A stretch of DNA of 24,000 nt. Source: Candidatus Ventrousia excrementavium. Lineage in GTDB: Bacteria; Bacillota; Clostridia; Oscillospirales; Butyricicoccaceae. Position numbers and translations under genes: made by a program. Position 1 is the stretch's first letter; every line of letters begins with the position of its first letter. The notes under the pieces are model-generated. The model ran no database searches, was not told the origin of the DNA, and was given only the letters and a program-made list of their open reading frames with translations. This document shows, piece after piece, positions 1-22,221 of the stretch. The DNA is taken from the NCBI GenBank assembly GCA_018714845.1, contig DVMR01000065.1:1-24000 (forward strand), written 5' to 3'.

Positions 1-509
1 ATCACCACTACCCACTGTTCGCGCTGGCGCAGGCGGACGAACTCATACCTTTCCATACTGATTGGCTCAAGCAGCAGACCGATGTCGGTCAAGCCGCGGT
101 CCATGCGGTCCTTGATATGGTCGGCTGTGCCAGTGTACAGGTCGAAAGACACCGCCGGATAGCGGGCATGAAAGGATTCGAACAGCCGGGGCAGAATCTG
201 AACAGCCGCCAGGTCTCCGCAGCCCACCGATACAGTTCCCTCGACCGTCTCGTCCTGCTCGGTCAGCTCTTTTTCGGTTTTGTCGACCAGCTCGAGGATT
301 TCTTCAGCCCGGCGGCGCAGCAGAAGGCCTTCGTTGGTCAGGACGATTTTTCGTGTCCCGCGGACAAACAGCTTGACGCCGAGGTCATCCTCCATCTGCG
401 CAATCTGACGGCTCAGAGTAGGTTGTGTGATGTGCAGGACTTCAGCGGCCTTGGTAATGCTTTCTTCACGCGCGACAGCTAGAAAATATCGAAGGACTCT
501 TGTTTCCAT
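1..509 (-). CDS. LysR-family transcriptional regulator (N-terminal about 170 aa; C-terminus runs off the left window edge)
   Basis: Absent from the ORF track because it is open at the edge. Reverse complement from ATG 509..507 reads METRVLRYFLAVAREESITKAAEVLHITQPTLSRQIAQMEDDLGVKLFVRGTRKIVLTNEGLLL..., a typical LysR winged-HTH, followed by the start of a LysR effector domain. GGAGGTG Shine-Dalgarno at 515..521 (minus), 5 nt from the ATG. Confidence 0.85.
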   Translation of the reverse strand, partial: METRVLRYFLAVAREESITKAAEVLHITQPTLSRQIAQMEDDLGVKLFVRGTRKIVLTNEGLLLRRRAEEILELVDKTEKELTEQDETVEGTVSVGCGDLAAVQILPRLFESFHARYPAVSFDLYTGTADHIKDRMDRGLTDIGLLLEPISMERYEFVRLRQREQWVVV

Positions 510-5426: not shown

Positions 5427-5528
5427 GCCTGCGTTAAATTGGATATAGAAAGCATATATAAAGCAGATGACAATTTTGTATAATAGGTGTATACTGTAAA
5501 AAAAGAGCATTATAGGAAGAGTTCCGAT

Positions 5529-7319
5529 ATGTCATATATAGTAGATGCGGCGGCGTGCGGGCTGTATTTTGACAGTATGCCGGTTGCTTTCACCATCATA
5601 GAGATTGTAGTGGATGAAAAGCAGCAGCCGATTGATTTTATTTTTCGGTATGCCAATGCAGCGTTGGCGAGGCTCGAAGGCAAAATGCTGCACGAGCTGA
5701 TCGATAAACGCTTTTATCGGGACGTCTTTCCGCAGGACAACGATAAAAAGTGTCTGCCGCACTACTTTCGGTCTGCCTTTCACAGGCAGGTGTGTCAGTT
5801 GAATGAATACAGCCGTGAAGCAAGTAAGCATCTGCGGATCATCTCATATCCGTGGCGCCAGCCGGGTTTCTGTGCGTGTATTTTGATTGACGAAACCGAG
5901 CAGAAGCGGCGATGGGATGAGTTGGGACACAGGGCGGCATTTGACTCACTGACCCGTACACTCAACCAGAACAGCTATCATGAATATTGTGAGGATTATC
6001 GCCCCGGAGCAAGCGCAGGCGTTGTCTTTATAGATGTCAACGGCCTGAAAGAATACAACGACAGTTTTGGCCATCCGGCGGGAGATCGATTGATTCAAAC
6101 AGTAACAGGCCGCATAGGGGCCGTTTTGATGAATCGCCCGCATCTGGTTTTCCGTGTAGGCGGGGATGAATTTGCCATTATTATGGAGGGTTGCACTGAG
6201 GAGCAGACATGTATGACGGCTCTGGAGCTGCGGCGGGCATTTGTCAATGACGGTAATCCCGATCTTCCGCCCACACTGGCTGCAGTTGGGTACAGCTGGG
6301 GCGAGAATGTGCAGAATATCGACGAGCTGCTCAAACGGGCGGATGCTGCAATGTATGCTAATAAGCAGGACCATTACAAGCGAAAGAATGAGGTGCAGGC
6401 GAGCGACTGGCAACGTGCACTGCCCCGCATCCGCAACATGATTGACCATAAAATGATTGAAAACGAGAACCACAGCGCGCATCAGATGTGGAAAGAAAGC
6501 TATCGGATTGGCGTGGACCGCATTGATGCACAGCATATGGAGCTGTTCCGCATGACGGACGAGCTTTTGATGGCAGTCACTGTCAATGCGGGCGCAGAGG
6601 TTTACAGAAAAATTCTTGGATTTTTAAAGGAATATGTGGTTTATCACTTCCGGGATGAGGAAGCGTATCAGCAATCTATTGGTTATGCTGGGTTTGAAGC
6701 ACATCAGCGCGAGCATCAGCAATTTACACAGACAGTGCTGGCGTATGAAAAAAAGCTGATTGCCAGTCACTTTGCCCTGAGTGACGTTAAGGATCTGGCC
6801 GGAACAGTTGTTGCCTGGCTGGTATATCATGTCACTGACGCGGACCAGCGAATTGTGTCTGGACAGACCGAGCTGCGGCCGCAGCAGAAGAACTGGCAGG
6901 ATATTTTTGTTGAAAGTGCAGCTGCTGTGGTAAAAAAAGTGTCAGGTTTGGACAACGGCCGGGTGTGTATTCATGAAGTGTCCGGGCGTCCTGTGCAGGG
7001 AGATGTGCTGCTGAAAGTGAGCATCAGCGGCGATGTAAGCGGGATGGTTTATTTCGGTGTGTCAAAGGCGCTGGCATTGAATGTGCTCAGTCAGCTGACC
7101 ATGCGCAGACTGAACGATGTGGAGGAGATGGTGTGCTCGGCCATCTGTGAGTTTACGGAAATTGCCTGCAGCCGTGCGATCAGGCTGCTTGAGATGCAGG
7201 GGGTGCACTGCAGAACCGGGACTCCCGTCAGACTGACGAGTCCTGCGCCGGAAGGTCTGCACGTCATGGTAGTCGAGATTGAGGCCGGGACACTTGATGT
7301 TGCAGTTGAGGAAGCCTGA
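5529..7319 (+). CDS. Multidomain diguanylate cyclase: PAS-like / GGDEF / bacteriohemerythrin / CheX-like
   Basis: ATG 5529 behind AGGAAGAG; the track start at 5487 has no SD. PAS-like N-terminus (MPVAFTIIEIVVDEKQQPIDFIFRYANAALARLEG...). GGDEF domain at about 5938..6380 with an intact motif RVGGDEFAI (GGDEF codons 6159..6173). Hemerythrin domain at about 6488..6855 with all ligand motifs (IDAQH, HFRDEE, HQREH, YHVTDAD). C-terminal roughly 140 aa (6891..7316) shows the CheC/CheX pattern ISGDVSGMVYFGVS ... SAICEFTEIACSRAIRLLEMQGVHCRTGTP. Confidence 0.85.
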   Translation: MSYIVDAAACGLYFDSMPVAFTIIEIVVDEKQQPIDFIFRYANAALARLEGKMLHELIDKRFYRDVFPQDNDKKCLPHYFRSAFHRQVCQLNEYSREASKHLRIISYPWRQPGFCACILIDETEQKRRWDELGHRAAFDSLTRTLNQNSYHEYCEDYRPGASAGVVFIDVNGLKEYNDSFGHPAGDRLIQTVTGRIGAVLMNRPHLVFRVGGDEFAIIMEGCTEEQTCMTALELRRAFVNDGNPDLPPTLAAVGYSWGENVQNIDELLKRADAAMYANKQDHYKRKNEVQASDWQRALPRIRNMIDHKMIENENHSAHQMWKESYRIGVDRIDAQHMELFRMTDELLMAVTVNAGAEVYRKILGFLKEYVVYHFRDEEAYQQSIGYAGFEAHQREHQQFTQTVLAYEKKLIASHFALSDVKDLAGTVVAWLVYHVTDADQRIVSGQTELRPQQKNWQDIFVESAAAVVKKVSGLDNGRVCIHEVSGRPVQGDVLLKVSISGDVSGMVYFGVSKALALNVLSQLTMRRLNDVEEMVCSAICEFTEIACSRAIRLLEMQGVHCRTGTPVRLTSPAPEGLHVMVVEIEAGTLDVAVEEA

Positions 7320-7373: not shown

Positions 7374-7571
7374 TTACTTCAGGTTGTTTTCGTACGACTC
7401 GATCATCTTCTTGACCATCTGGCCGCCGATGCTGCCGGCCTGGCGGGAAGTCAGCTCGCCGTTATAGCCGTTGGTCAGGTTGACGCCGACTTCGCGGGCA
7501 GCTTCCATTTTGAACTTATCCATAGCGGCACGGGCTTCAGGAACATTGATCTTGCTGCGATTGCTAGACAT
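7374..7571 (-). CDS. Alpha/beta-type small acid-soluble spore protein (SASP)
   Basis: MSSNRSKINVPEARAAMDKFKMEAAREVGVNLTNGYNGELTSRQAGSIGGQMVKKMIESYENNLK. Shows the conserved SASP blocks KxExAxExGV and TSRxxGSxGGxM, including the GPR-type cleavage context MEAARE. ATG 7571 lies behind AAAGGAG; the track start at 7595 is upstream of the SD. Confidence 0.9.
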   Translation of the reverse strand: MSSNRSKINVPEARAAMDKFKMEAAREVGVNLTNGYNGELTSRQAGSIGGQMVKKMIESYENNLK

Positions 7572-7699
7572 TATGATGTTCTCCTTTAATTTCAAATGTT
7601 AGCCATCGTCGGGCAGGAGCGGGCTTTCCGGCGGATTTGGTCGGGCTGTCCGCTCCTGTCAGCTGATGGTGTTCTTAGTATGGCGGGCCAGCGGTTTTT

Positions 7700-8182
7700 T
7701 TATGATAAGGAAATGTTGCCAGCGTTGGATTCATTTTTTTGCTGTTCGGCGCCGAGCAGCAGACAGACCGCCGCTACAGCCATGCGGGTCTCCATATCGC
7801 CGCAAAGGTGACCAACCGGAACTTCCATGGGCTCGACCGATCGCCCGTCCAGGGTCATCAGGCCGCGCTGCAGGGAAACGACACGGCCCTCGCCCAGCGT
7901 AGCTGAGGGCGTCAGCGTATCGCGGACGCTGAAACCGTAGGTGACCACCATATCGCAGCGGCAGTGCTCAAGCGCCGGGCCGGCATTTTCACCGCAGACA
8001 GTCAGCGCGCGCGCACTGAGTGACATGGTCTGCGGCGGGCAGGGGTTCTGTGCCCACACGACGACATCATAGGGCGGCGGCGTTTCGCACGGCGCGGTGA
8101 CCAGCGCTTTTGGGCCGACCGCAGCCTGCAGAGCTGCACGCACCGGGCCACCGGGCTGTTCGACGACGGCAATGACGCGCAA
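7700..8182 (-). CDS. Hypothetical Cys-rich protein (160 aa)
   Basis: TTG start 8182 behind GAGGTGA. Seven Cys residues. The C-terminal two thirds (ALTVCGENAG..CDMVVTYGFSVRDTL...VVSLQRGLMTLDGRSVEPMEVPVGHLCGDMETRMAVAAVCLLLG) resemble, by eye only, the second half of a Mur-ligase central domain. There is no P-loop. Confidence 0.55.
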   Translation of the reverse strand: MRVIAVVEQPGGPVRAALQAAVGPKALVTAPCETPPPYDVVVWAQNPCPPQTMSLSARALTVCGENAGPALEHCRCDMVVTYGFSVRDTLTPSATLGEGRVVSLQRGLMTLDGRSVEPMEVPVGHLCGDMETRMAVAAVCLLLGAEQQKNESNAGNISLS

Positions 8183-8251
8183 AGGGGCTCACCTCTTTGT
8201 ATATAAAAATCAAAATCTTTGTATAGTGTGTCTGCAATACTGAAAAAAATA

Positions 8252-8287
8252 CAAAAAAACAGCCCCCTGACCACGATCAAAGGGCTG
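8252..8287 (-). terminator. Rho-independent terminator of the yedE-yedF-DUF3343 operon
   Basis: Minus strand: CAGCCC..(TGA..TCA inner stem)..GGGCTG, an interrupted hairpin followed by TTTTTTTGTATTTTTTT. Confidence 0.55.
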
Positions 8288-8292
8288 CTTTG

Positions 8293-8532
8293 TCAGTTTT
8301 CCGGCTGCTCAAAAAGCAGCGTATAGCCATTTGGTGCATCCTCGTATACTGCTTCGAGGTCGTCTGTCGCCATGGACGGTTCAAACGGACCCTCGAAGCG
8401 CACACAGACGCCGCATGAAGCGCTGAGAGCGCGCGGGACCGGCATCATGCCGGCGTTTCGGCCAAGACGCTCTATTTTTTTCTGAAAGCTCATGGCCCCA
8501 AAGTGGGTGTGAAAGGTGGCAATCAGGTGCAT
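8293..8532 (-). CDS. DUF3343-family small protein (putative Se/S carrier-like)
   Basis: 79 aa. HLIATFHTHFGAMSFQKKIERLG...MMPVPRALSASCGVCVRF matches the P-x-P-R-x-(3)-S-CG pattern I recall for DUF3343. AAGGGGGA SD. Last gene of the yedE operon. Confidence 0.7.
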   Translation of the reverse strand: MHLIATFHTHFGAMSFQKKIERLGRNAGMMPVPRALSASCGVCVRFEGPFEPSMATDDLEAVYEDAPNGYTLLFEQPEN

Positions 8533-8577
8533 GGCAGAATCCCCCTTTATACATGGCGGGGAATCCCGGCCCCGCTC

Positions 8578-8778
8578 TTACTCGATGGTCAGCTCGAAAT
8601 CCGGGCCAACCTCTTTGCATTTTACCACAAGTTTCTGGTTTTGTGCAAATCGGGTGATGTTCTGCACAGCCGTGCGATTATCGACCAGCACGGTCAGGGG
8701 ACGGCCTTTTGCCAGCGCCTGTTTGGTCATCAGCACCGGCTCAGGACAGGAATAGCCGCGGGCATCAATCTTATTCAT
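8578..8778 (-). CDS. yedF: TusA/SirA-like sulfur/selenium carrier protein (YedF-like)
   Basis: 66 aa. IDARGYSCPEPVLMTKQAL carries the TusA-family CPxP active-site Cys motif. AGGAGG SD. Lies 16 nt after yedE. Confidence 0.8.
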   Translation of the reverse strand: MNKIDARGYSCPEPVLMTKQALAKGRPLTVLVDNRTAVQNITRFAQNQKLVVKCKEVGPDFELTIE

Positions 8779-8794
8779 TGTGCGCTCCTCCTTT

Positions 8795-9865
8795 TTATTC
8801 CGCTTTCTGGCGGTTGAGCAGGCCGATTACCGTGCAGACGACCAGGCCGAGAATGACGGCGATTTTGCCATTCAGGGTCGGGCCGGCCGTCGACGAGGCC
8901 AGCGAGAAGTTGTGGCAGAAGGCGGCGCCGACGACCATGCCGAGCACGGCGACAGCGCTGTCGCTCTGGCCGCTGCCGGCCAGAATAAGCTGGCGCAGCG
9001 GGCAGCCGCCCAGCATGACCGAGCCAAGACCGGTCAACGCCATGCCGATGAAGTTCCACACACCGTCAGTGTGTGCGATGGGCTGTGTTGTTTCAGCGTC
9101 GATGACAAAGCCGAGGTGGAACTGCCCGACAATCAGGTTGCCGACCAGTGCGGCGACAATGATGGCGACAAAGCCGAGAAGCAGATGGAAGTCCTTGAAC
9201 AGAACGGCGTCACGGATGCCGCCGACCATGCACAGGCGGGTCTTCTGCGCCAGCGCGCCGACAACCAGTCCGGCGGCCAGGGCCAGCCACATGGGGGCGC
9301 GCATCGAACCCGGGCCGCTTTCGCTGAACAGCAGCAGCGAGGGCACGGCGACGAGCAGAATCAGAACGACAATGGACATGACAGGCATCAAAGCGCCCTC
9401 AACCTTGGACTGCGGCTGCGACTTTTTCAGGCTGAAGCCCTTTTTCAGGAAAAGGACGCCGGCCAGAATGCCGGCGGCAAAGCCGACCAGGCCGACAATG
9501 GCGTTGAGGTCGCCGCCCGCGATGCGCAGCACCATGCGCAGAGGACAGCCCAGGAACATCAGAGCGCCGACCATGACAAAAAAACCGAGCACAAAGCGGG
9601 TGACCGGCGACGAGCCGCCGCGCACCTTGAACTCTTTGCCGGCGATGGCCATGATGCAGGCGCCAAGCACCAGGCCGATAATCTCGGGACGGGCGTACTG
9701 CACGGTGTCGGCGCGATGCAGACCGAGTGCGCCCGCCGTGTCGCGCAAAAAGCAGGCGATGCAAAAGCCCATGTTGCCCGGGTTGCCGCACTGCACCAGC
9801 ACGACAGAGATGGCGCCGATAATCAGTCCCGTCAGCACCATCAGCAGGGTTTGCTTGTTTTTCAT
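8795..9865 (-). CDS. yedE: YedE/YeeE-family membrane protein (putative selenium/sulfur-compound transporter)
   Basis: 356 aa polytopic membrane protein. N-terminal signature VQCGNPGNMGFCIACFLRDTAGALGLH and a second GGCPLRQ / LGCPLRM repeat are typical of the YedE family. GAGGAG SD. Confidence 0.85.
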   Translation of the reverse strand: MKNKQTLLMVLTGLIIGAISVVLVQCGNPGNMGFCIACFLRDTAGALGLHRADTVQYARPEIIGLVLGACIMAIAGKEFKVRGGSSPVTRFVLGFFVMVGALMFLGCPLRMVLRIAGGDLNAIVGLVGFAAGILAGVLFLKKGFSLKKSQPQSKVEGALMPVMSIVVLILLVAVPSLLLFSESGPGSMRAPMWLALAAGLVVGALAQKTRLCMVGGIRDAVLFKDFHLLLGFVAIIVAALVGNLIVGQFHLGFVIDAETTQPIAHTDGVWNFIGMALTGLGSVMLGGCPLRQLILAGSGQSDSAVAVLGMVVGAAFCHNFSLASSTAGPTLNGKIAVILGLVVCTVIGLLNRQKAE

Positions 9866-9947
9866 ATGTACTCTCCTCTTTTCTGCGGCCGGACTGGCCG
9901 CTGGGTTCCCCCCTCGTGGGAGTTAAGGCAGGGTATTTGCTATAAGA

Positions 9948-9977
9948 ATTGTATCGAAAAATGGCAGGATTGTACAA
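9948..9977 (-). promoter_or_regulatory. Candidate sigma-A promoter of the yedE operon
   Basis: Minus strand: TTGTAC (9972..9977), 18-nt spacer, TACAAT (9948..9953). Predicts a leader of about 75 nt. Confidence 0.4.
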
Positions 9978-10095
9978 TATTTTTTATCGATAAAATCTTT
10001 TTTATTTATAGTTTTTCGTGATAAGTATGGAAATGGGTGACAAAATCCGATATACTGAACACAATGGGAGTAATGATTTAAAGAGGGAAGTTTAC

Positions 10096-11247
10096 ATGTC
10101 CATTTATTTTGACAACGGAAGTACATCTTTTCCCAAAGCGCCTGGCGTGGCCGAGGCAGTGGGAGGTTTGATTGCGTCGGGGGCCTTTAACATCAACCGC
10201 GGCGGCTACGCCGGGGCGTACGAGGTCGCGGGCGCGGTGTTCGAAACGCGGGAGCTTTTGTGCCGCATGTTCGGATTTTTAGGCGAGTGCAAAAATGCAG
10301 TGTTCACTCCAAGCGTTACCTATGCGCTCAACATGATTCTCAAGGGGTGGCTGCGCCCGGGGGACCATGTCGTCACAACGTCCATGGAGCACAACGCCGT
10401 CATGAGGCCGCTCGTTCAGCTGGCGGGGACCGGCGTACACTTTGACGCTGCGCAGGCCGATGAGCGCGGTGTGCTCGACCCCGAAAAAATAGAAGCGCTC
10501 ATCAGGCCGGAGACCCGCGCGGTTGTCATGACGGCGGCGTCCAATGTCTGCGGAACGCTCATGCCGCTGCGCGAGGTGGGAGAAATCTGCGCGCGGCGCG
10601 GCGTGCGGTTCATTGTGGACAGCGCGCAGGCGGCGGGACTGTTCCCTCTGTCCATGACAGAGCTGCACATTGACGCGCTGACCTTTACAGGCCATAAGAG
10701 TCTGCTCGGTCCGCAGGGCATTGGCGGCATGATTCTGCGCACAGACCTCGCAGAGGAAATCGAGCCGCTGGTCAGCGGCGGGACGGGCAGCATGTCGGAC
10801 AGTGAAGAGGTCCCGCCTTTTCTGCCTGACCGGTTCGAGCCCGGTACGCTCAACCTGCCCGGCATCATCGGCCTGCACACAGCGCTTTTGTTTTTGCAGG
10901 AGACCGGTATTGACACCCTGCGCGGGCATGACCTGCGTCTGACCGCGCGCTTTTTGGATGGCGTGCGGGAACTGCCGCACACAAGAGTCGTCGGCCTGCC
11001 CGGCGTTGAGGGCCGCGCGCCCATTGTATCGCTCGACTTCGGCACACTGGACAACGCCGAGGTGGCCTACACGCTGGACAGCCGGTATGGCGTCATGACG
11101 CGCTGCGGCCTGCACTGTGCGCCGCGGGCCCACAAAAGCCTCGGCACTTTCCCGCAGGGCACGGTCCGCTTTGCCTTTGGATATGGGAACACAGAAAGCG
11201 AAGTCGATCAGTGCCTGGATGCGCTCAAAGAGATTACCAGACAGTGA
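10096..11247 (+). CDS. Class-V aminotransferase, cysteine desulfurase / selenocysteine lyase-like
   Basis: ATG 10096 behind AGAGGGAAG; the track start 10018 lies in AT-rich non-coding DNA. MSIYFDNGSTSFPKAPGV..., PLP-Lys motif FTGHKSLLGPQGIGG, active-site Cys loop MTRCGLHCAPRAH. Confidence 0.85.
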   Translation: MSIYFDNGSTSFPKAPGVAEAVGGLIASGAFNINRGGYAGAYEVAGAVFETRELLCRMFGFLGECKNAVFTPSVTYALNMILKGWLRPGDHVVTTSMEHNAVMRPLVQLAGTGVHFDAAQADERGVLDPEKIEALIRPETRAVVMTAASNVCGTLMPLREVGEICARRGVRFIVDSAQAAGLFPLSMTELHIDALTFTGHKSLLGPQGIGGMILRTDLAEEIEPLVSGGTGSMSDSEEVPPFLPDRFEPGTLNLPGIIGLHTALLFLQETGIDTLRGHDLRLTARFLDGVRELPHTRVVGLPGVEGRAPIVSLDFGTLDNAEVAYTLDSRYGVMTRCGLHCAPRAHKSLGTFPQGTVRFAFGYGNTESEVDQCLDALKEITRQ

Positions 11248-11250
11248 AAA

Positions 11251-11273
11251 GCGCGGAAGCACTGCTTCCGCGC
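11251..11273. terminator. Shared hairpin terminator between the desulfurase gene and selD
   Basis: GCGCGGAAG-CACTG-CTTCCGCGC, 9-bp stem. GAAAA on the left; T-run (GATTTTTT) 9 nt to the right. Confidence 0.6.
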
Positions 11274-11286
11274 CATTCGTGATTTT

Positions 11287-12324
11287 TTATAAAACCGTGA
11301 CAGCTCTGTCGCCCCGGTCGCGTACCTCGCCGACCAGCGCGGCGGCGACGCCTTCGGCCTCAAGCCGCTGCATCAGCTCACCGGAACGCGCTTCAGGCAC
11401 CGAGATGAGCAGTCCGCCCGACGTCTGCGGGTCGTAAAGCACGTCAGAGAGCGCCTGCGGGACCGACGGGTCGACCAGAACCTCGTCTGCGACAAAGTCC
11501 ATGTTGCGGTAGGTACCCGCCGGAATGATGCCTTCGCTTGCCAGCTCGAGCACACCGGGCAGTACGGGCACGCTTTTGGAGTCGATGACGACTGAAAGGC
11601 CGCTGCCGCGCGCCAGCTCGCAAAGGTGGCCCAGAAAGCCGAAGCCGGTGACGTCGGTACAGGCGCTGGGACGGACAGGCATCATGGCGCGCTGGGCGTT
11701 TTTGTTGAGCGTTGCCATGACGGCGGTCATATCGCGCACCTGCTGCTCGTCGAGCAGCTCGGCCATGGCGGCGGTGGTCAGGATTCCAGTGCCCAGCGGC
11801 TTGGTCAGTACCAGCTTGTCGCCCGGCCGGGCGCGGTCGTTGCGCAGAATGTCATCCGGGTGGGCGTAGCCTGTGACGCACAGGCCGTATTTGGGCTCGC
11901 TGTCTTCGATGGAATGCCCGCCGGCAATGACGGCGCCGGCCTCGCGCACCTTGTCGGCTCCGCCCTCCAGAATGGCGCGCACGGTCTGCAGGTCCAGGCA
12001 GGACGGAAAGCAGATCAGGTTCATGGCGAGATTGGGCATGCCGCCCATGGCGTAGACGTCGCTTAACGAATTGGCGGCCGCAATCTGCCCGAATGCGTAC
12101 GGGTCGTCGACAATGGGCGGGAAAAAGTCGACGGTGTGGATGGCCGCCAGGTCATCGCGCACGAGATAAACAGCCGCATCGTCGCTCGAATCAAAGCCGA
12201 CGACGAGCCGCTCGTCCTGCAAACGGGGCAGGCCTCTTAAAATTTCACTCAGGACCCCCGGTCCTATCTTTGCGCCTCAGCCGCCCGCTTTGGCCATTTG
12301 CGTCAGGCGCTGTTTTTCAGCCAT
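11287..12324 (-). CDS. selD: Selenide, water dikinase (selenophosphate synthetase) containing selenocysteine (in-frame TGA)
   Basis: Track ORF 11287..12222 starts just after an in-frame TGA. Extending in frame gives ATG 12324 (GAAGGGGG SD) and MAEKQRLTQMAKAGG-U-GAKIGPGVLSEILRGLPRLQDERLVVGFDSSDDAAV.... The TGA at 12277..12279 sits exactly where SelD has its catalytic Cys/Sec (E. coli GCGCK, Sec forms GUGCK), and the Lys is kept. No other stops lie in the 34-codon extension. Total 345 codons, a normal SelD length. Confidence 0.9.
12251..12265 (-). promoter_or_regulatory. Candidate bacterial SECIS hairpin for the selD UGA
   Basis: mRNA: UGA-GGCGCAAAGAU-AGGACC-GGG-GGUCCU. The 6-bp stem (extendable by U-G) starts 11 nt after the UGA, with a G-rich apical loop about 17 nt downstream. 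This is within the spacing described for bacterial SECIS elements. Confidence 0.55.
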
Positions 12325-12359
12325 AACAAAATGCCCCCTTCGTTGGATTTACTGCCAAC

Positions 12360-12388
12360 ATCATAAACGATTGCGGCCCAAAATACAA
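12360..12388 (-). promoter_or_regulatory. Candidate sigma-A promoter of selD
   Basis: Minus strand: TTGTAT (12383..12388), 17-nt spacer, TATGAT (12360..12365). Confidence 0.45.
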
Positions 12389-12415
12389 GCCCCACTGCAA
12401 AAAGGAGGAATTGCC

Positions 12416-13333
12416 GTGCACTTTAAACAAGTCGAGGCCTTTGTCAACGTCATCCGGCATAAGAGCTTTTCAAAGGCGGCTGAGGCCATCTATCTGTCGC
12501 AGCCGACCATCAGCGCGCACATCAGCTCGCTGGAAAACGAGCTGGGCGTTTGCCTGATCGTGCGCTCGACAAAGGAAGTCTACCCGTCGGCTGCAGGGCA
12601 GATTTTTTATCAGTATGCGCTCGAGATGCTGCGCCTGCGCGACCGCGCCATTCTGGAGGTGCAGAGCTACTCGACCGAGGTGCGCGGCGAGCTGGACATC
12701 GCCGCCTCGACGGTGCCGTCGCAGTATATTCTTCCCGAGCTTTTGCCGTCGCTGGTTGAAAAGTACCCCAAGGTCTTTTTTTCGGTGCGGCAGTATGACA
12801 GCGGCGAGGTGGTGGGGCGCATCGTCAATATGGAAGCTGAGGTCGGCATGACCGGTACGGCACCCGACAAGGGGGCCTGTGCGTTTGAGCCCTTTATGGA
12901 CGATCAGCTGGTGCTCATTGCGCCCAATACGCCTGAATATCAGGAAATGGCAGAACTGGCGCCGTCGGTGCTGCGCTCTCTGCCCGTCATCGTGCGTGAG
13001 AGCGGCTCAGGCACGCGGCGCGAAGCGGAGGAGTTTTTGCTGGGCGCCGGCGTGGACCCCAAATCGCTGCACGTTGTGGCGCAGATGCAGAGCACTGAAA
13101 GTATTAAACAGGCGGTGCGCAAGGGGCTGGGCGTGTCGGTCATTTCACGCCTGGCGGCGGCCGACTTTCTGGAAAGCGGCGATGTTTTGGAGCTCAAGCT
13201 GCAGAGCACCCATCCGCAGCGCAGCTTTTATCTGGTCTATCATAAAAAACGCCCACTGTCGCCGGCGGCAGAAGTCTTTGTCAAGGAAGTTCGGGCACGA
13301 TTCGGTGTGGCGGCGCCGCAGGATGAGCAGTAA
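12416..13333 (+). CDS. LysR-family transcriptional regulator, divergent from selD
   Basis: GTG 12416 behind AAAGGAGGA. The track start 12290 would overlap the selD 5' end and has no SD. VHFKQVEAFVNVIRHKSFSKAAEAIYLSQPTISAHISSLENELGVCLIVRSTKEV is a LysR wHTH, followed by a full effector domain. Confidence 0.85.
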   Translation: MHFKQVEAFVNVIRHKSFSKAAEAIYLSQPTISAHISSLENELGVCLIVRSTKEVYPSAAGQIFYQYALEMLRLRDRAILEVQSYSTEVRGELDIAASTVPSQYILPELLPSLVEKYPKVFFSVRQYDSGEVVGRIVNMEAEVGMTGTAPDKGACAFEPFMDDQLVLIAPNTPEYQEMAELAPSVLRSLPVIVRESGSGTRREAEEFLLGAGVDPKSLHVVAQMQSTESIKQAVRKGLGVSVISRLAAADFLESGDVLELKLQSTHPQRSFYLVYHKKRPLSPAAEVFVKEVRARFGVAAPQDEQ

Positions 13334-13365
13334 AATCAGATATTGCCATTCGTGAAACATAAAAA

Positions 13366-13387
13366 CCCCGCCTTTTGCAGGGCGGGG
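13366..13387 (-). terminator. Rho-independent terminator of the rarA / P-loop / VanZ operon (may also stop the LysR transcript)
   Basis: CCCCGCC-TTTTGCAG-GGCGGGG. On the minus strand it is followed by TTTTTAT. Confidence 0.65.
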
Positions 13388-13400
13388 GATTAACTGGCTG

Positions 13401-13910
13401 TTATCTGCCGAAAAATACGCTGTTGAGCAGTTCAGCGGCCAAGATGGAAAGAACAGTCAGCGCGGCAAGCCAGCAGGCCAGGGCGACAGGGCGTTCACGG
13501 CTGAGACGTACAGCGTAAAAACCCAAAGAAAATCCCCAGGTATTGACGAGAATGTCTTCCATGTCAAAGCTGCCCAGCCGGGTGAGCATCTGCATCAGCT
13601 CCAGCGCGATGACTGCTGCGGCAAAGACTGCAAGACAACGGCTGTAGGAATGAAGGCGCGTGGGAAAAGCACGGGGAAGAAGCAGCCCAAAGGGGGCAAA
13701 GGCCAAAAGGTTGCCCATGCTGAAAACCCAGAGCAGAGAAAAATGTCGGGGCATCCACAGGGGGATGCCGGTGATGACAAAAGAATAGCGCAGCGCCACG
13801 TCCGGGGTGCCGCTCTGCCGGCCAAACGCAAAAAACATCAGAAAAATAATACAGATAGTATATAAAAGCAGACTGATCTTCCAAAAGGAAGCATTTTTTT
13901 GCTGGAACAT
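13401..13910 (-). CDS. VanZ-family membrane protein
   Basis: Four hydrophobic segments plus VanZ-type motifs GNLLAFAPFGLLLP and DMEDILVNTWGFSLG. Start uncertain: ATG 13910 (AAGGA 11 nt upstream), ATG 13922 or TTG 13946. Confidence 0.7.
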   Translation of the reverse strand: MFQQKNASFWKISLLLYTICIIFLMFFAFGRQSGTPDVALRYSFVITGIPLWMPRHFSLLWVFSMGNLLAFAPFGLLLPRAFPTRLHSYSRCLAVFAAAVIALELMQMLTRLGSFDMEDILVNTWGFSLGFYAVRLSRERPVALACWLAALTVLSILAAELLNSVFFGR

Positions 13911-16277: not shown

Positions 16278-16310
16278 TTGCATAGAGACTGATTTTGAGG
16301 AGGCATGACG

Positions 16311-17150
16311 ATGAGAGAAATTTCGGCGCAGCAGATTGCCGACACGGTGCGGCGCCTGTGCATTGAAGCCAATCGCAGCCTGCCCGGCGACGTCCGCCGG
16401 CGCATTCAGGACTGCCGCGCGCAGGAGGACTGGGAGCCGGCGCAGGGAATTTTGGACAAAATCATTGAAAATTACCGCATTGCGGACGACGAGCAGGTGC
16501 CCATCTGCCAGGACACCGGCATGGCCTGTGTTTTTTTGGAAATCGGACAGGATGTTCATATTATGGGTGACCTGCACGCTGCCGTTGACGACGGTGTCCG
16601 CCGCGGCTATGACGAGGGATATCTGCGCAAGTCGGTCGTCCGCGACCCTCTGGACCGCGTCAACACCGGCGACAATACGCCGGCCATGCTGTATATTGAC
16701 CTTGTGCCGGGCGATCGCGTCACCGTCACCGTCGCGCCCAAGGGCTTTGGCAGCGAAAACATGAGCCGCATCAAAATGCTGCGGCCGTCTGACGGGATTG
16801 ACGGCGTCCGGCAGTTCGTGCTCGACACCGTCGAAGAGGCAGGCCCCAACCCCTGTCCGCCCATCGTCGTTGGCGTCGGTATCGGCGGCACCTTTGACAA
16901 AGCGGCCTTTCTGGCTAAAAAGGCGCTGATGCGTCCTCTCGACAAGCGCAATGAAAAGCCGTTTTATGCAGAGCTTGAGCAGGAGCTTTTGGAAAAAATC
17001 AACGCTCTCGGCGTCGGGCCGCAGGGCTTCGGCGGACGTACGACGGCACTTTGCGTCAACATCGAGACGCTGCCGACCCATATCGCCGGCCTGCCCGTGG
17101 CCGTCAACATCAACTGCCATGTGACACGCCATCAGACGGAGGTGCTGTAA
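16311..17150 (+). CDS. Class-I (Fe-S) fumarate hydratase / hydro-lyase alpha subunit; probable mesaconase in this context
   Basis: ...IIENYRIADDEQVPICQDTGMACVFLEIGQDVHI...GFGSENMSR...CPPIVVGVGIGGT is the Fe-S hydro-lyase tartrate/fumarate alpha type. ATG 16311 is 7 nt after GAGGAGG; ATG 16305 is too close to the SD. Confidence 0.88.
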   Translation: MREISAQQIADTVRRLCIEANRSLPGDVRRRIQDCRAQEDWEPAQGILDKIIENYRIADDEQVPICQDTGMACVFLEIGQDVHIMGDLHAAVDDGVRRGYDEGYLRKSVVRDPLDRVNTGDNTPAMLYIDLVPGDRVTVTVAPKGFGSENMSRIKMLRPSDGIDGVRQFVLDTVEEAGPNPCPPIVVGVGIGGTFDKAAFLAKKALMRPLDKRNEKPFYAELEQELLEKINALGVGPQGFGGRTTALCVNIETLPTHIAGLPVAVNINCHVTRHQTEVL

Positions 17151-17711
17151 ATGGAAAAGCGCATCGAGACCCCCATCACGCGCGAGGCGGCGCGTGCACT
17201 CAAAAGCGGCGACGCAGTGCTGCTTTCGGGCGTCATCTACACGGCGCGCGACGCGGCGCACAAGCGTTTGTGCGAGCTGGCCGAACAGGGAAAGCCGCTG
17301 CCTATTGACATTGAAAACGCGACCATTTATTTTGTCGGGCCCACGCCGGCAAAGCCGGGACAGGCCATCGGCTCGGCCGGCCCGACGACCAGTTACCGCA
17401 TGGACGCCTATTCGCCGACCTTGATTGCCCTGGGCCAGACCGGCATGATTGGCAAGGGAAAGCGCGGGCCCGAGGTTGTCGAGGCCATGAAAAAGTACGG
17501 CGCCGTCTACTTCGGCGCCATCGGCGGCGCGGGCGCGCTTTTGTCCCGCTGCATTGTAAAAAGCGAGGTCGTGGCTTATGAAGACCTGGGGGCTGAGGCC
17601 ATCCGGCGCCTGACTGTGCGCGACCTGCCTGTAACGGTCATCATCGACAGCGAGGGCAATAATCTGTATGAAACCGGACGGCAGCAGTACCTGGCAGAGC
17701 ATAAAAAATAG
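17151..17711 (+). CDS. Class-I (Fe-S) fumarate hydratase / hydro-lyase beta subunit
   Basis: LKSGDAVLLSGVIYTARDAAHKRL...IYFVGPTPAKPGQAIGSAGPTTSYRMD...GMIGKGKR is the beta-subunit pattern. Its ATG directly abuts the alpha-subunit TAA (17148..17150). Confidence 0.88.
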   Translation: MEKRIETPITREAARALKSGDAVLLSGVIYTARDAAHKRLCELAEQGKPLPIDIENATIYFVGPTPAKPGQAIGSAGPTTSYRMDAYSPTLIALGQTGMIGKGKRGPEVVEAMKKYGAVYFGAIGGAGALLSRCIVKSEVVAYEDLGAEAIRRLTVRDLPVTVIIDSEGNNLYETGRQQYLAEHKK

Positions 17712-17714
17712 GGA

Positions 17715-17743
17715 TTGACAAATAATGATTCCATTGTCATAAT
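17715..17743 (+). promoter_or_regulatory. Candidate sigma-A promoter of the GntR gene
   Basis: Consensus TTGACA (17715..17720), 17-nt spacer, CATAAT (17738..17743). Confidence 0.45.
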
Positions 17744-17793
17744 TGTACCAGTACATTTACGCCAGGCAGAACACGGCGGAGAGGTGAAGGTCA

Positions 17794-18768
17794 ATGGAGA
17801 TCAGAATTAAGTCAGGGACTGACGTCCCTATTTATCAGCAGATTGTCGACGCCGTGCAGGAGCAAATCAGTTCAGGCGTGCTGGCCGAGGGACAGAAGCT
17901 GCCTACGGTGCGGCAGCTGGCCGAAGAGATGGGGCTGGCCAAAGGGACAATCAAACGCGCCTATGACGAGCTGGAACGCTGCGGCGCCATTCGTATGACC
18001 CAGGGCAAGGGGACCTTTGTGCTGGAGCTGCGCCGCCGCACGGACAGCCACAAGGAGCAGGCCATGCAGGCCATTGACCGCATGCTGGACGAGCTCGAGG
18101 CGCTGGATTTTTCGCCCCGCGAAATCGAGATTTTCTTTGACCTCAAGCTTCGGGCGCGCATGGATCGCGGCGCCGGGCTGCGTGTTGCCGTCACAGACTG
18201 CAATGTCGAGGCGCTGGCGCTGATTGCAGACCAGATTGCCGCCATCGGGGGCATTGAGCTCTTCCGGTTTACGCTGGATGAGGTTATGAGCGCGCCGTAC
18301 AAGCTGAGCGACAGCATGGAGCTGATCTTTACAACCGAGCGCCACGTCGAACAGCTTGAGCGCATTGTGTCGCAGCCGCAGAAAATCGTCAAGCTGGCGC
18401 TTGCCCCGACGCAGGCGACCGTCGTTTCGCTGGCGAGGATGCGCGACGCGCGGCGGATCGGGATTATCAGCGCCAGCGAGCAGTATGGCGACGCCATGCG
18501 CGAAGGGGCGTCCGAGGTCATCGGCACGGATCACCGGTTTGAGTCGCGCTTTTTCGGCGACGGCGATCCCGGCGGCTTTGTCAGCCGCCAGGACGCCGTG
18601 CTGGTGCCTGCCGGCTATATGAAATACTGTTCGGCCGAAGAGGCCGAATGGCTGCACCGCTTCAGCCGCAGCAAACCGCTGCTGGCCTATGAGCTGCAAA
18701 TCGATGCAGGGTCTTTTATGTACCTGCGCGACCGCATCGAACAGCTGCAGCGCCGGCGCAGGAAATAG
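17794..18768 (+). CDS. GntR-family transcriptional regulator with a large unclassified C-terminal domain
   Basis: PIYQQIVDAVQEQISSGVLAEGQKLPTVRQLAEEMGLAKGTIKRAYDELERCGAIRMTQGKGTFV is a GntR wHTH. The remaining roughly 250 aa I cannot assign to the FCD, UTRA or MocR effector types by eye. GAGAGGTGAAGG SD. Confidence 0.8.
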   Translation: MEIRIKSGTDVPIYQQIVDAVQEQISSGVLAEGQKLPTVRQLAEEMGLAKGTIKRAYDELERCGAIRMTQGKGTFVLELRRRTDSHKEQAMQAIDRMLDELEALDFSPREIEIFFDLKLRARMDRGAGLRVAVTDCNVEALALIADQIAAIGGIELFRFTLDEVMSAPYKLSDSMELIFTTERHVEQLERIVSQPQKIVKLALAPTQATVVSLARMRDARRIGIISASEQYGDAMREGASEVIGTDHRFESRFFGDGDPGGFVSRQDAVLVPAGYMKYCSAEEAEWLHRFSRSKPLLAYELQIDAGSFMYLRDRIEQLQRRRRK

Positions 18769-18776
18769 AGGGAAAA

Positions 18777-18799
18777 GTCCGGGGTTCCCGGGCTTTTTT
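18777..18799 (+). terminator. Rho-independent terminator after the GntR gene
   Basis: GTCCGGG-GTT-CCCGGGC, 7-bp stem including one G-U pair, followed by TTTTTT. Confidence 0.75.
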
Positions 18800-18820
18800 C
18801 ACATTTTGAGTAAAATTGCC

Positions 18821-18849
18821 TTGACATATGACATAGCACAATATATGAT
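18821..18849 (+). promoter_or_regulatory. Candidate sigma-A promoter of the glmS-glmL-glmE-mal operon
   Basis: Consensus TTGACA (18821..18826), exact 17-nt spacer, TATGAT (18844..18849). Leaves a leader of about 70 nt before ATG 18924. Confidence 0.55.
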
Positions 18850-18923
18850 ATAGGCATAGTTCAAGCAATGACAAAGTACACGAATAAGGGCTTTGATCAA
18901 GCCCGTAAGAATGGAGTGCGCTT

Positions 18924-19343
18924 ATGAGCAAAAAAAAGAAACTGGTCATCGGCGTTATCGGCGCCGATGTCCATGCCGTTGGCATTCAGATTCTTTACCA
19001 TGCCTTTCAGGACGCGGGGTTCGACGTGACCAACCTGGGAGTCATGGTTTCACAGGAGGAGTATATTGACGCGGCTATTGAGACCAACGCCGACGCCATT
19101 GTTGTTTCGTCGCTGTACGGGCAGGGCGAGCTTGACTGCCGCGGTATGCGCGAAAAGTGCGACGAGGCCGGTCTGAAGGGCATTTTGCTGTACGTCGGCG
19201 GGAACATCGTCATTGGAAAGCAGAACTTTGCCGATGTGGAAAAGCGTTTCAAGGCCATGGGCTTTGACCGCGCCTTCCCGCCCGGGACACCGCCTGAGAC
19301 GACGATCAAGGCTTTGAAAGAGGATCTCAAGGTCGAGGACTGA
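18924..19343 (+). CDS. glmS: Glutamate mutase (methylaspartate mutase) small subunit S, B12-binding
   Basis: [20 protein letters not shown] (DxHxxG), [16 protein letters not shown]. 139 aa. Close to Clostridium MutS/GlmS as I recall them. Confidence 0.92.
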
Positions 19344-19359
19344 AAAGGGGTGACGGAAG

Positions 19360-20760
19360 GTGAAGCCCATCCTGCTCATTGACTTTGGCAGCACCTACAC
19401 CAAAGTGACGGCCGTGGACGGCGACGCCGGCGAACTGCTCGGGACGGCGGCCGCTTACACCACGGTGCAGACCGACATTAATGACGGCCTGGACAGCGCG
19501 CTGAAGCGGCTTTTTGAAAAAACCGGGCCGTTGGAGTTCGCCGAGCGTTACGCCTGTTCGTCGGCAGCCGGCGGGCTGCGCATGATGGCGTGCGGGCTGG
19601 TGCCCGAGCTGACGGCGTCGGCCGCGCGGCAGGCCAGCCTGGGCGCGGGAGCCAAAGTCGTCAAGGTGTATTCATACCAGCTCAACGAAGACGACGCCGA
19701 AGAAATCGCCGCCCAGAAGCCGGATATTTTCCTGCTGGCGGGCGGGACTGACGGCGGCAACAGCGAGGTCATTCTGCACAACGCCAAAGTGCTGGCCGGC
19801 GTAGAGGCCGATTTTCCGGTCATTATCGCGGGCAACCGCTCGGCGGCCCGGCAGTGCCAGCGGATCCTGGAAGGCCGCCAGACCTTTGTGTGCGAAAACG
19901 TCATGCCCCGGTTCGGCGTGCTCAATATCGAACCCACACAGAAAAAGATCCGCGACGTGTTCCTGGAGCGCATTATCAAGGCCAAGGGCCTGTCGCGCGC
20001 CAGCGAACTGATTTCGGGCATTATGATGCCCACCCCGTCCGCCATGATGACGGCCATGCAGCTGCTGGCCGAGGGCTGCGAAGGGGAAAAGGGCATCGGC
20101 GACCTGGTTGCCGTCGACGTCGGCGGCGCGACGACCGACGTCTATTCCATTGCCGACGGTATGCCGCGCGGAATGGAGACCGTATACAAGGGCCTGCCTG
20201 AACCGTATGTCAAGCGCACGGTCGAAGGGGACATCGGGATGCGTTACAGCATCCACGGCATTGTCGAAGCGGCCGGGATGGATCGCGTGTGCGAGCTGTC
20301 AGGGCTGGAAGAGGGCCGGGCGGCAGAACTCATCGACCACCTGGCGGCCTATACCGAGACGCTGCCCGACACCGACGAGCTGGAGCGCCTTGACTTTGCG
20401 CTGGCGTCGCTCGCTGTCGAGACGGCGGTCACCCGTCATGCGGGCACCATGGAACAGGCGTACACCATGATGGGCCTGACTTATGTGCAGACGGGAAAGG
20501 ATTTGCGCGATGTGCGGCAGATCGTCGTGACGGGCGGATCGCTGATTCACACGCGCAGGACGGAAGAGATTGCGGCGCACGCGCTGCAGGATCCGCGCAA
20601 GCCCATGAACCTTTTGCCGCAAAAGGCAAAGATCCGCATCGACCGGCGTTATATTCTGGCGGCGATGGGGCTTTTGTCCCGGACCGAGCCGCAGATGGCG
20701 CTCAGAATCATGAAAAAGGAGCTTACATGCGATGGAAGTACAGAACAAACGCATCCCTGA
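19360..20760 (+). CDS. glmL: Glutamate mutase accessory protein GlmL/MutL (reactivase/chaperone-like, ASKHA fold)
   Basis: GTG start. [20 protein letters not shown]..., [24 protein letters not shown]. Occupies the canonical position between the S and E subunit genes. Confidence 0.88.
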
Positions 20761-22180
20761 CGACGAGTTTTACAAGCTGAGAGAAGAGGTCCTGGGCCAG
20801 TGGCCGACCGGCAAGGACGTCAATTTGCAGGAAGCCTTTGACTACCATAAGAAAATGCCCGAGAGCAAGGACTTTTCGCGCAAGCTCAAAACGGCCAAGG
20901 AAAAGGGCCAGACCCTGATTCAGCCGCGCGCCGGCGTCGCCCTGATCAAAGAGCACATCGAGCTTTTGACTTATTTGCAGGACAAGGGCGAGGCGGATCT
21001 GCTGCCGACGACCATCGACAGCTACACCCGCCAGAACCGTTATGAAGAAGCCGAGAACGGCATTTTGGAATCTATCAAATCGCAGCGCTCGATGCTCAAC
21101 GGCTTTCCGGCCGTCAATCACGGCGTTTCGGGCTGCCGCCAGGTCATCGAAAGCCTCGACATCCCGGTGCAGGTGCGCCACGGCACCCCGGACGCCCGCC
21201 TGCTGACCGAAATCGCCTATGCCGGCGGCTTTACCAGCTATGAGGGCGGCGGCATTTCGTACAACCTGCCCTATGCCAAAAACGTGCCCATGGAGCGCAC
21301 CATCCGCGACTGGCAGTATGTCGACCGCCTGACCGGCGTCTATGAAGAGGCCGGATGCGCCATCAACCGCGAGCCCTACGGCCCGCTGACCGGCACGCTG
21401 GTCCCGCCGTGCATTTCGCACGCCGTCGCCATTATCGAGGCGCTTCTGGCCGCAGAGCAGGGCGTTAAGAATATCACGGTCGGCTACGGCCAGTGCGGCA
21501 ACCTGGTGCAGGACGTCGCCGCCATCCGCAGCCTGGAAGAGCTGACCGAAGAGTACCTGGCCCGCTACGGTTATGACGACGTCACCGTTACCACGGTGCT
21601 GCACCAGTGGATGGGCGGGTTCCCGCAGGACGAGGCCAAGGCCTTTGGCGTCATTTCGTGGGGGTCGGCGGCCGCCGCTTTGAGCCACGCCACCAAAGTC
21701 ATCGTCAAGAGCCCGCACGAAGCGGTCGGCATCCCGACCATGGAGGCCAACGCGCAGGGCCTGCGCTGCACCAAGCAGGTCATTTCCATGCTGGGCGACC
21801 AGACCCTGACCGCCGCCGGGCTGGAACAGGAAAAGAAGATCATTGCCGCCGAGACCCGCTGCATCGTCGACAAGTGCTTTGAGCTGGGCGAGGGCGACAT
21901 TGCCGTCGGCACCATCCGCGCCGTGCAGGCCGGCGTCGTCGACATCCCGTTCGCCCCCAGCCGTTTCAACGCGGGCAAGATGCTGCCCGCCCGCGACGAC
22001 GAGGGCGCGATCCGCATCCTTAACGTCGGCAACCTGCCGTTTACGCAGGATCTCATCGACTTCAACCGCGAACAGATTGAAAAGCGCGCCGCGCACGAAA
22101 AGCGCAAGGCGTCGTTCCAGATGGTCATCGACGACGTCTACGCCATTTCCAAGGGCCGCCTGGTCGGCCGCCCGTACTAA
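20732..22180 (+). CDS. glmE: Glutamate mutase (methylaspartate mutase) large subunit E
   Basis: [48 protein letters not shown]...[46 protein letters not shown] is collinear with Clostridium GlmE. AAAGGAG SD. Overlaps the glmL 3' end by 29 nt. Confidence 0.92.
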
Positions 22181-22221
22181 CCCGTACTAAAAAGATTCCA
22201 TTACAGAGAGGAAGAGCAAAA

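Follow-up and report, generated by a model that had tools for sequence, protein, structure and literature searches.

A probable selenium acquisition, salvage and activation cluster with a predicted LysR_Se operator in an uncultured gut Clostridia bacterium

Six genes of selenium metabolism lie within positions 8293-13333 of the 24,000-nucleotide (nt) stretch analysed here, which is referred to throughout as the window (contig DVMR01000065.1 of assembly GCA_018714845.1, Candidatus Ventrousia excrementavium). They probably form a chromosomal cluster for the acquisition, salvage and activation of selenium in this uncultured gut Clostridia bacterium, and they would feed a selenocysteine (Sec)-decoding trait encoded elsewhere in the genome. 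As a system, the locus is of a known kind. The one new result, which goes beyond the literature found, is a predicted operator for the selenium-associated LysR-type regulator LysR_Se, a 19-bp interrupted dyad that we call the Se-box. An initial annotation of the window had read the locus as import through YedE, relay on Cys carriers, a lyase, SelD and control by LysR, and this functional reading fits both the curated protein families and the published model (PMC5322559). The same annotation had also presented the locus as a not-yet-described functional system, a claim that does not hold, as the module was described in 2015 (PMC5322559) and NCBI annotation models already bear those names.

In 2015 Lin et al. 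surveyed over 2300 genomes for the genes that neighbour those of selenium metabolism, and proposed that YedE is a selenium transporter, that YedF/SirA-like proteins are redox proteins or carriers, that DUF3343 is a selenium/sulfur chaperone and that LysR_Se is the regulator; Sec lyase was another neighbour met repeatedly, and all were set within a model of selenium homeostasis (PMC5322559) that was restated in a 2022 review (PMC9312934). In that survey YedE and LysR_Se were almost confined to SelD-containing organisms, their co-occurrence with SelD having P about 2e-16, and LysR_Se correlated with the Sec trait (PMC5322559). The clusters reported there, for example those of Slackia heliotrinireducens and Coprococcus comes, agree with the window in their families, in the co-localisation of selD and in the proposed roles; the window differs from them in having no linked selA or selB and in that its carrier is a single-domain TusA protein and not a two-domain YedF (PMC5322559). 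A 2024 study notes that a transporter specific for selenium is not known from any organism (PMC11097638).

Open reading frame (ORF) listing, translation and family scans place the six genes in the order yedE-tusA-DUF3343 (minus strand), class-V lyase (plus), selD (minus) and lysR (plus), with the coordinates given in Table 1. The lyase gene, written sclA below for brevity, diverges from yedE, selD converges on it, and lysR diverges from selD; all four units that the initial annotation had reported within 5 kb were found where it had placed them. Curated NCBIfam cut-offs are passed by four of the six proteins, namely those for YedE, for the EF2568/SclA-type desulfurase, for SelD and for the "selenium metabolism-associated LysR". 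The genes of the yedE-tusA-DUF3343 operon are separated by 16 and 45 nt, and a conserved promoter together with a terminator supports reading them as one operon.

Table 1. Positions of the selenium genes and of their predicted signals in the window
Feature	Position	Strand	Basis or remark
Intrinsic terminator of the yedE-tusA-DUF3343 operon	8256..8291	-	16-pair stem, then T-run, right after the DUF3343 stop
DUF3343 / Se_S_carrier, 79 residues	8293..8532	-	PF11823, 45 bits vs cut-off 25
Single-domain TusA-family carrier, 66 residues, C11-P-E-P	8578..8778	-	PF01206, 62.9 bits vs 28.6
YedE-family putative selenium transporter, 356 residues	8795..9865	-	TIGR04112, 514.9 bits vs 200
yedE-leader hairpin GCGGCC-agtcc-GGCCGC	9885..9901	-	just upstream of the Shine-Dalgarno sequence; leader fold z = -2.1
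Predicted yedE promoter, -35 TTGTACA, -10 TACAAT	9948..9977	-	promoter scan; conserved in orthologous intergenic regions
Box 2, candidate LysR activation-site half	9981..9992	-	abuts the yedE -35 element; 31 nt from the Se-box
Se-box, candidate LysR-type interrupted dyad, 19 bp	10006..10024	.	between the yedE and sclA -35 elements
Predicted sclA promoter, TGGAAA, 17-nt spacer, TATACT	10028..10056	+	promoter scan; both hexamers conserved in relatives
Class-V pyridoxal phosphate (PLP) lyase, EF2568/SclA subfamily, 383 residues	10096..11247	+	TIGR01977, 403.3 bits vs 377
selD, selenophosphate synthetase, 345 codons	11287..12324	-	TIGR00476, 363.3 bits vs 125
Candidate bacterial selenocysteine insertion sequence (SECIS) hairpin AGGACC-ggg-GGUCCU	12251..12265	-	11 nt after the UGA; centroid fold; conserved in relatives
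UGA (Sec) codon of selD, codon 16	12277..12279	-	frame runs on across the TGA; ATG at 12324
Predicted selD promoter, TTGTAT, 17-nt spacer, TATGAT	12360..12388	-	conserved in eight orthologous lysR-selD intergenic regions
LysR_Se, 305 residues, GTG start after AAGGAGG ribosome-binding site	12416..13333	+	NF040786 LysR_Sec_metab, 362.5 bits vs 250

The adjacency of the six genes exceeds chance, because the same layout recurs across loci and also in rearranged forms. Neighbourhoods were drawn from three independent samplings: one anchored on SelD (80 species genomes), one on DUF3343 (six diverse homologues) and one on LysR (80 metagenome contigs in 34 lineages). The layout of the window is repeated unchanged in loci L007-L011, L024, L091, L099, L100 and L101, where L024 is from the uncultured Clostridia bacterium E09__bin3 and encodes proteins 98-100% identical to those of the window. 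Rearranged versions occur in L034, L036, L049, L092, L095, L097, L152 and L160; among them L034, L036 (Anaerotaenia torta) and L049 have sclA divergent from yedE-tusA-DUF3343-selD. Anaerotruncus massiliensis carries yedE, sclA, selA, selB, yqeB, yqeC, lysR and selD all inside 10 kb, and Negativibacillus has kept only the divergent lysR-selD pair of the module. In all six DUF3343-anchored loci the DUF3343 gene is directly downstream of yedE(-tusA) and a class-V enzyme is encoded at most 3 kb away, with selD nearby in four and LysR in four. The usual gut layout in the LysR-anchored contigs is yedF-selD-selA-selB-lysR followed by sclA-yedE-tusA, and in some relatives from that sampling the module and selA-selB form a single operon. 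Locus L091 has the exact layout of the window followed by selA-selB and glycine reductase, the module lying 1.5 kb from selA-selB-grd. Two further variants were recorded: DUF3343 directly after yedE with no tusA between them (L097, 6905-8243), and a module joined to yqeC and selD, that is, to the selenium-cofactor trait (L095, 2567-8246).

YedE is placed by its match to the selenium YedE model, against which the TsuA models reach only 40.7 and 21.2 bits. The protein belongs to the Pfam family Sulf_transp and distantly matches the YeeE structures 6LEO and 8J4C (E = 2e-6), and in the alignment its C212, C288 and C107 correspond to C22, C91 and C293, the relay cysteines of YeeE. In YeeE-YeeD, three YeeE cysteines relay thiosulfate to the CPxP cysteine of the TusA-like YeeD (PMC11073785). 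The YeeE(TsuA)-YeeD(TsuB) system (PDB 6LEO, 8J4C, 8K1R) thus resembles the window in its Pfam family, in its aligned relay cysteines and in having an adjacent CPxP partner of the TusA family, whereas the YedE of the window is a distant relative under another NCBIfam equivalog, is linked to selD and not to cys genes, and is accompanied by an extra DUF3343 gene. The hairpin in the yedE leader is found at the same position in L007-L011; it is G+C-rich, it lies 6-10 nt upstream of the Shine-Dalgarno sequence, and its stems differ (GCGGCC/GGCCGC, GGCAGAG/CUCUGCC, GUCCGA/UCGGAC). No U-tail stands behind it and it has no Rfam match. An Rfam scan of the window gave no family at its gathering score, and at E up to 1 only chance-level matches in 7500-13500; since no family reached its gathering score, neither the yedE leader nor the selD leader contains a known riboswitch.

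The 66-residue protein encoded after yedE has the CPxP motif of the TusA family, here reading YSCPEP. The initial annotation had named it YedF, and of that name the TusA-like CPxP carrier stands on its PF01206 score (62.9 bits), while the YedF identity falls below both YedF cut-offs. The TIGR03527 YedF consists of an N-terminal TusA domain and a C-terminal DsrE-like domain with CGxC; against that model the protein scores 49.6 bits where 110 are needed, with the match confined to positions 1-58 of 194, and against the Escherichia coli-type YedF model NF008242 it scores 19.3 bits where 79 are needed. A two-domain YedF (TusA plus a DsrE-like domain with VCGTCL) is encoded beside selD in many other loci, the copy in L057 scoring 228 bits.

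DUF3343 is marked by the motifs FHTH and SASCGVC(V), with H10, C40 and C43 as key residues. It had been described as a single-Cys protein; two cysteines, C40 and C43, are in fact present in SASCGVCV. In alignment A1 (39 homologues) the invariant positions are T6, F7, T9, H10, P31, P33, R34, S37, S39, C40, G41, C43 and D58. A wider survey of 149 representatives of 50%-identity clusters, among the matches listed and within one subfamily throughout, found C40 and H10 near-invariant, C40 standing in the core motif of 138 of the 149; C43 was kept in about 90% and was elsewhere A, G or S. A four-ligand, metal-like site formed by H8, H10, C40 and C43 was considered and is weakened by the variation at position 8 (H, F or Y) and by the replacement of C43 in about 10%. 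The AlphaFold2 model (mean confidence, pLDDT, 89) has a beta-alpha-beta-beta-beta-beta topology. Descent of DUF3343 from a detached C-terminal DsrE-like domain of YedF was rejected as homology, hhalign having aligned only an 11-residue CGxC motif with a probability of 26%; a functional analogy between the two is possible. Lin et al. found no selenium-specific branch of DUF3343 (PMC5322559), whereas every homologue examined here is YedE-linked. A carrier role is suggested by its fixed place after yedE-tusA, by the His/Cys conservation and by the published proposal, and it is the least secure step of the model.

The class-V enzyme has K201, H99-N100 and the motif R336-C-G-L-H-C341-A. Its K201 and the Cys of RXGXHCA align with those of solved type II desulfurases (nearest 5B7S, E = 9e-47), which bears out the intact Lys and active-site Cys attributed to it by the initial annotation. 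Since it falls below the cut-off of the SclA exception model NF040779 (397.2 bits vs 525), we file it by score within the EF2568/SclA subfamily and not as SclA itself. The Enterococcus faecalis SclA (EF2568), which belongs to the same TIGR01977 subfamily, has been characterised as a lyase that prefers Sec, and it shares with the enzyme of the window the catalytic Lys (K201/K202), C341 in RXGXHCA and an adjacent selD (bioRxiv 10.1101/2020.02.07.939272). The window lyase differs from SclA in its score against the SclA model and in having Asn at position 100, where SclA and SufS have His. An H100N mutant of SclA retained Sec-lyase activity (bioRxiv 10.1101/2020.02.07.939272), and therefore N100 is no argument against the assignment. 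In E. faecalis, an organism without the Sec trait, SclA serves the selenium cofactor of a hydroxylase (bioRxiv 10.1101/2020.02.07.939272).

The selD gene has an in-frame TGA in the context MAEKQRLTQMAKAGG-U-GAKIGPG. A TGA occupies this catalytic-loop position in all 17 relatives examined, with both flanks kept (GG*GAKIGPG). The six-pair candidate SECIS hairpin behind it falls in the conserved coding motif IGPGV, and its fold is no better than that of shuffled sequence. Being a selenoprotein, SelD needs its own product in order to be synthesised, and because a Sec-containing SelD requires the Sec machinery, we infer that selA, selB and selC must be elsewhere in the genome. The initial annotation had noted the absence of selA, selB, selU, yqeB and yqeC from the window, and this was confirmed: no ORF of at least 150 residues in the window has a Pfam match to SelA, SelB, SelU, YqeB or YqeC, and tblastn with the five E. 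coli proteins found none of them, either in the window or over 41 kb of a 156-kb metagenome contig that carries the same locus; Pfam also gave no match to them in those 41 kb. There is also no tRNA gene in the window, and hence no tRNA-Sec there. The weight that had been put on the missing Sec-insertion genes is nonetheless misplaced: selD carries a conserved Sec codon, so that their local absence is uninformative about the trait, and relatives place the module beside or together with selA-selB. In the window and its nearest relatives the lysR-selD intergenic region measures 91-112 nt and includes a sigma-70-type selD promoter. A promoter-scan match at 12447-12420 lies inside lysR and was set aside in favour of the conserved TTGTAT-17-TATGAT; likewise, a 347-residue LysR ORF from 12290 overlaps selD, the real start being at 12416.

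LysR_Se has the domains HTH_1 and LysR_substrate. Between the divergent yedE and sclA promoters is the predicted Se-box, TTATAGTTTTTCGTGATAA, with the consensus TTATAGA-N5-TCTATAA, and next to it box 2, TATCGATAAAAA; the pair is spaced by exactly 31 nt in L008, L009, L010 and L021. A 12-mer read from box 2, TATCGAwAAAAA, is a real footprint of the nearest clade only and was superseded by the 19-bp dyad. Distant loci (L090, L091, L092 and L036) also carry the Se-box, and some copies are perfect palindromes, for example TTATAGATAGTATCTATAA. The initial annotation had proposed control by LysR through 9866..10095, and the proposal gains support from this conserved dyad of LysR type in the yedE-sclA intergenic region.

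For counting, the Se-box was generalised to TTATMG-N7-CKATAA (a LysR-type T-N11-A core) with one mismatch allowed, and expected counts were taken from block shuffles. The window has a single match, with one mismatch, at 10006-10024. Across the genome loci plus the window (1.29 Mb) 28 matches were observed and 12 expected. Among the 76 loci outside motif derivation (1.15 Mb), 5 were observed against 0.35 expected in the 300-nt regions upstream of yedE, sclA, selD, lysR and selA, which make up 2.6% of the sequence and in which 200 shuffles gave a maximum of 2; outside these upstream regions the same loci gave 13 against 9. In the LysR_Se-anchored metagenome set (34 lineage representatives, 332 kb) the count was 35 against 3.5, many copies being perfect TTATAGA-N5-TCTATAA. 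The Se-box is thus statistically associated with selenium loci; its binding by LysR_Se, the effector and the direction of regulation we infer.

These copies are found again and again at particular positions. In the metagenome set Se-boxes are found just past the lysR stop, which is upstream of the class-V (sclA-like) gene that precedes yedE-tusA, and upstream of the yedF-selD-selA-selB-lysR operon. In five lineages (L125, L130, L146, L154 and L162; for example L146 at 10386 and 10826) they lie in the divergent promoter between the gene for proline racemase and the prdC-like gene that opens a D-proline reductase operon. Two more precede grdX of the glycine reductase operon in L091 (18493 and 18944), 9 kb from the six-gene module. 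PrdB, GrdA and GrdB are selenoproteins. Loci of the Negativibacillus type have the Se-box inside the lysR-selD intergenic region. Separately, a PHP-domain gene just upstream of yedF-selD-selA-selB-lysR is preceded by a Se-box (L128, 50-822; L146, 1-779) and may also belong to the regulon.

Lin et al. gave no operator or regulon for bacterial LysR_Se (PMC5322559), the literature searched has no description of a bacterial LysR_Se operator, and the papers found include no study of any bacterial member. The nearest comparison is HrsM, the Methanococcus orthologue of LysR_Se, which is likewise of LysR type, is tied to selenium status and controls selenoenzyme-related genes (PMC11097638; cited in PMC5322559); unlike the regulator of the window it is archaeal, represses Cys-isoform genes and has a different binding region (PMC11097638).

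Under the reading we favour, the ten-helix, YeeE-related YedE would take up reduced or thiol-reactive selenium species along its conserved cysteine ladder, and the CPxP TusA-type protein would receive the selenium at the cytoplasmic face, by analogy with YeeD and YeeE. DUF3343 (His10, Cys40 and usually Cys43) may then pass it on as perselenide or selenotrisulfide, which is the weakest step. The SclA-type PLP lyase would act on free selenocysteine and release its selenium as an enzyme-bound perselenide, an activity known for the E. faecalis member, and SelD, by the established function of its family, would turn selenide into selenophosphate. LysR_Se would bind the predicted dyad TTATAGA-N5-TCTATAA, which lies between the divergent promoters of yedE and sclA, and would so tie the transcription of these genes to selenium status.

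Several points weigh against this reading. The papers found contain no demonstration of selenium transport by any YedE, and deletion of yedE in Methanococcus maripaludis gave no clear phenotype (PMC11097638); related YedE/YeeE proteins transport sulfur species (for YeeE, PMC11073785). DUF3343 is found also in organisms lacking SelD (PMC5322559), and its predicted fold has no significant match among solved structures. The selA, selB and selC of the organism itself were not found in the window or in the 41 kb of contig. The Se-box of the window matches only weakly, its right half-site being degenerate, and the lysR-selD region, which had been proposed as a second target of LysR (12325-12415), lacks the dyad even when three mismatches are allowed, as is also the case in L007-L011. 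The protein that would bind the Se-box is assigned by the form of the dyad and by its association with lysR_Se. Shared ancestry among gut Clostridia could, moreover, be behind part of the enrichment, the sampled lineages being mostly gut Clostridia and several of the held-out matches coming from related species.

Some of these points would suit a unit for import and trafficking of sulfur (thiosulfate or persulfide) that is merely beside selD and serves iron-sulfur or thio-cofactor synthesis. YedE aligns with the thiosulfate importer YeeE within Sulf_transp, TusA proteins carry sulfur and YeeE requires YeeD for its function, YedE1E2 is an importer of zero-valent sulfur, the nearest solved relatives of the class-V enzyme are cysteine desulfurases, the presence of DUF3343 without SelD (PMC5322559) would be expected, and the module in L090 adjoins iscR-nifS-nifU with no selD within 10 kb. 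We nevertheless hold such a unit to be unlikely, as the selenium YedE model outscores the TsuA models (515 bits vs at most 41), YedE co-occurs with SelD genome-wide (PMC5322559), selD and LysR_Se accompany the module in several independent arrangements, and a promoter motif is common to the module, to the selD-selA-selB operon and to selenoenzyme operons. That same motif, by which the cluster would be co-regulated with selenium-consuming pathways, argues against a role mainly in detoxification or buffering, that is, in the sequestration or export of reactive selenide and not in acquisition. YedE might work in the export direction, Cys-rich carriers could buffer selenide, and a protective role against toxicity has been discussed for Sec lyases, yet the relatives YeeE and YedE1E2 act in the import direction and yedE mRNA of M. 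maripaludis rises by 5.3 log2 units under selenium starvation (PMC11097638), so that we consider this explanation very unlikely.

The cluster might also feed a different selenium trait, be it selenouridine, a selenium-containing small molecule or the labile selenium cofactor that molybdenum hydroxylases use. This would agree with the lack of selA and selB within 41 kb, with the yqeC that adjoins the module in L095, with the yqeB and yqeC that accompany selA and selB at the module of Anaerotruncus massiliensis, and with the hydroxylase locus in which the E. faecalis SclA is found. Yet the conserved Sec codon of selD requires the Sec machinery, no yqeB, yqeC or selU is present in the 41 kb either, LysR_Se correlates with the Sec trait (PMC5322559), and relatives have the module beside selA-selB-grd; the probability of this explanation is, in our judgement, minimal, and the selenium traits (Sec, cofactor, selenouridine) are not mutually exclusive.

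A broader proposal, to which we give a little less than an even chance, can be made on top of the favoured reading: that TTATAGA-N5-TCTATAA is the operator of bacterial LysR_Se, that it defines a regulon of three sets, and that YedE-linked DUF3343 proteins are dedicated selenium carriers. The three sets would be acquisition (sclA, yedE-tusA(-DUF3343)), activation and Sec insertion (yedF-selD-selA-selB-lysR) and the Stickland reductases for D-proline and glycine. The regulator of the window would then control the divergent yedE and sclA promoters only, and the YedE-linked DUF3343 proteins with His10, Cys40 and Cys43 would make up the dedicated carrier subfamily.

Identical copies of the proteins occur on metagenome contigs that reach 156 kb in length, and within the 41 kb read of the 156-kb contig the neighbours are housekeeping genes (proS, the S10 ribosomal protein operon and citramalate lyase). 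Elsewhere the window encodes unrelated functions, among them an amino-acid ATP-binding cassette transporter, a small acid-soluble spore protein, VanZ and RarA. Next to the module, orf160 (7700-8182, minus strand, 160 residues) is conserved only in L007-L009 and L024 and has no Pfam or NCBIfam match at E up to 1; it was rejected as a seventh member of the cluster, being set apart by the terminator, missing beyond the closest relatives and without a family match. A cluster for glutamate fermentation by the methylaspartate pathway occupies 16305-23466 of the window, and another is found at 11344-14894 of L093; its genes encode a two-subunit, class I fumarase-like (mesaconase-type) pair, a GntR regulator, glutamate mutase S, L and E, methylaspartate ammonia-lyase and citramalate/citrate lyase-type proteins. 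An unusual fusion of GGDEF, hemerythrin and CheX-like parts is encoded at 5487-7319 (plus strand), and is split into two genes in some metagenome copies (L006). The 5' part of a second, unrelated gene of the LysR family stands at the edge of the window (75-485, minus strand); it is 30% identical to LysR_Se and is complete, with 294 residues, in L094.

The locus offers a compact case in which genes for uptake, salvage and activation, together with a regulator gene, stand apart from the genes for Sec insertion. The predicted operator is a defined 19-bp site, and Anaerotruncus massiliensis, Anaerotaenia torta and Negativibacillus massiliensis are among the culturable relatives. The regulon proposed here, if true, would be the first selenium regulon predicted for Firmicutes, and a true link to the operons of proline and glycine reductase would mean that gut Clostridia couple Stickland fermentation to the availability of selenium at the level of transcription.

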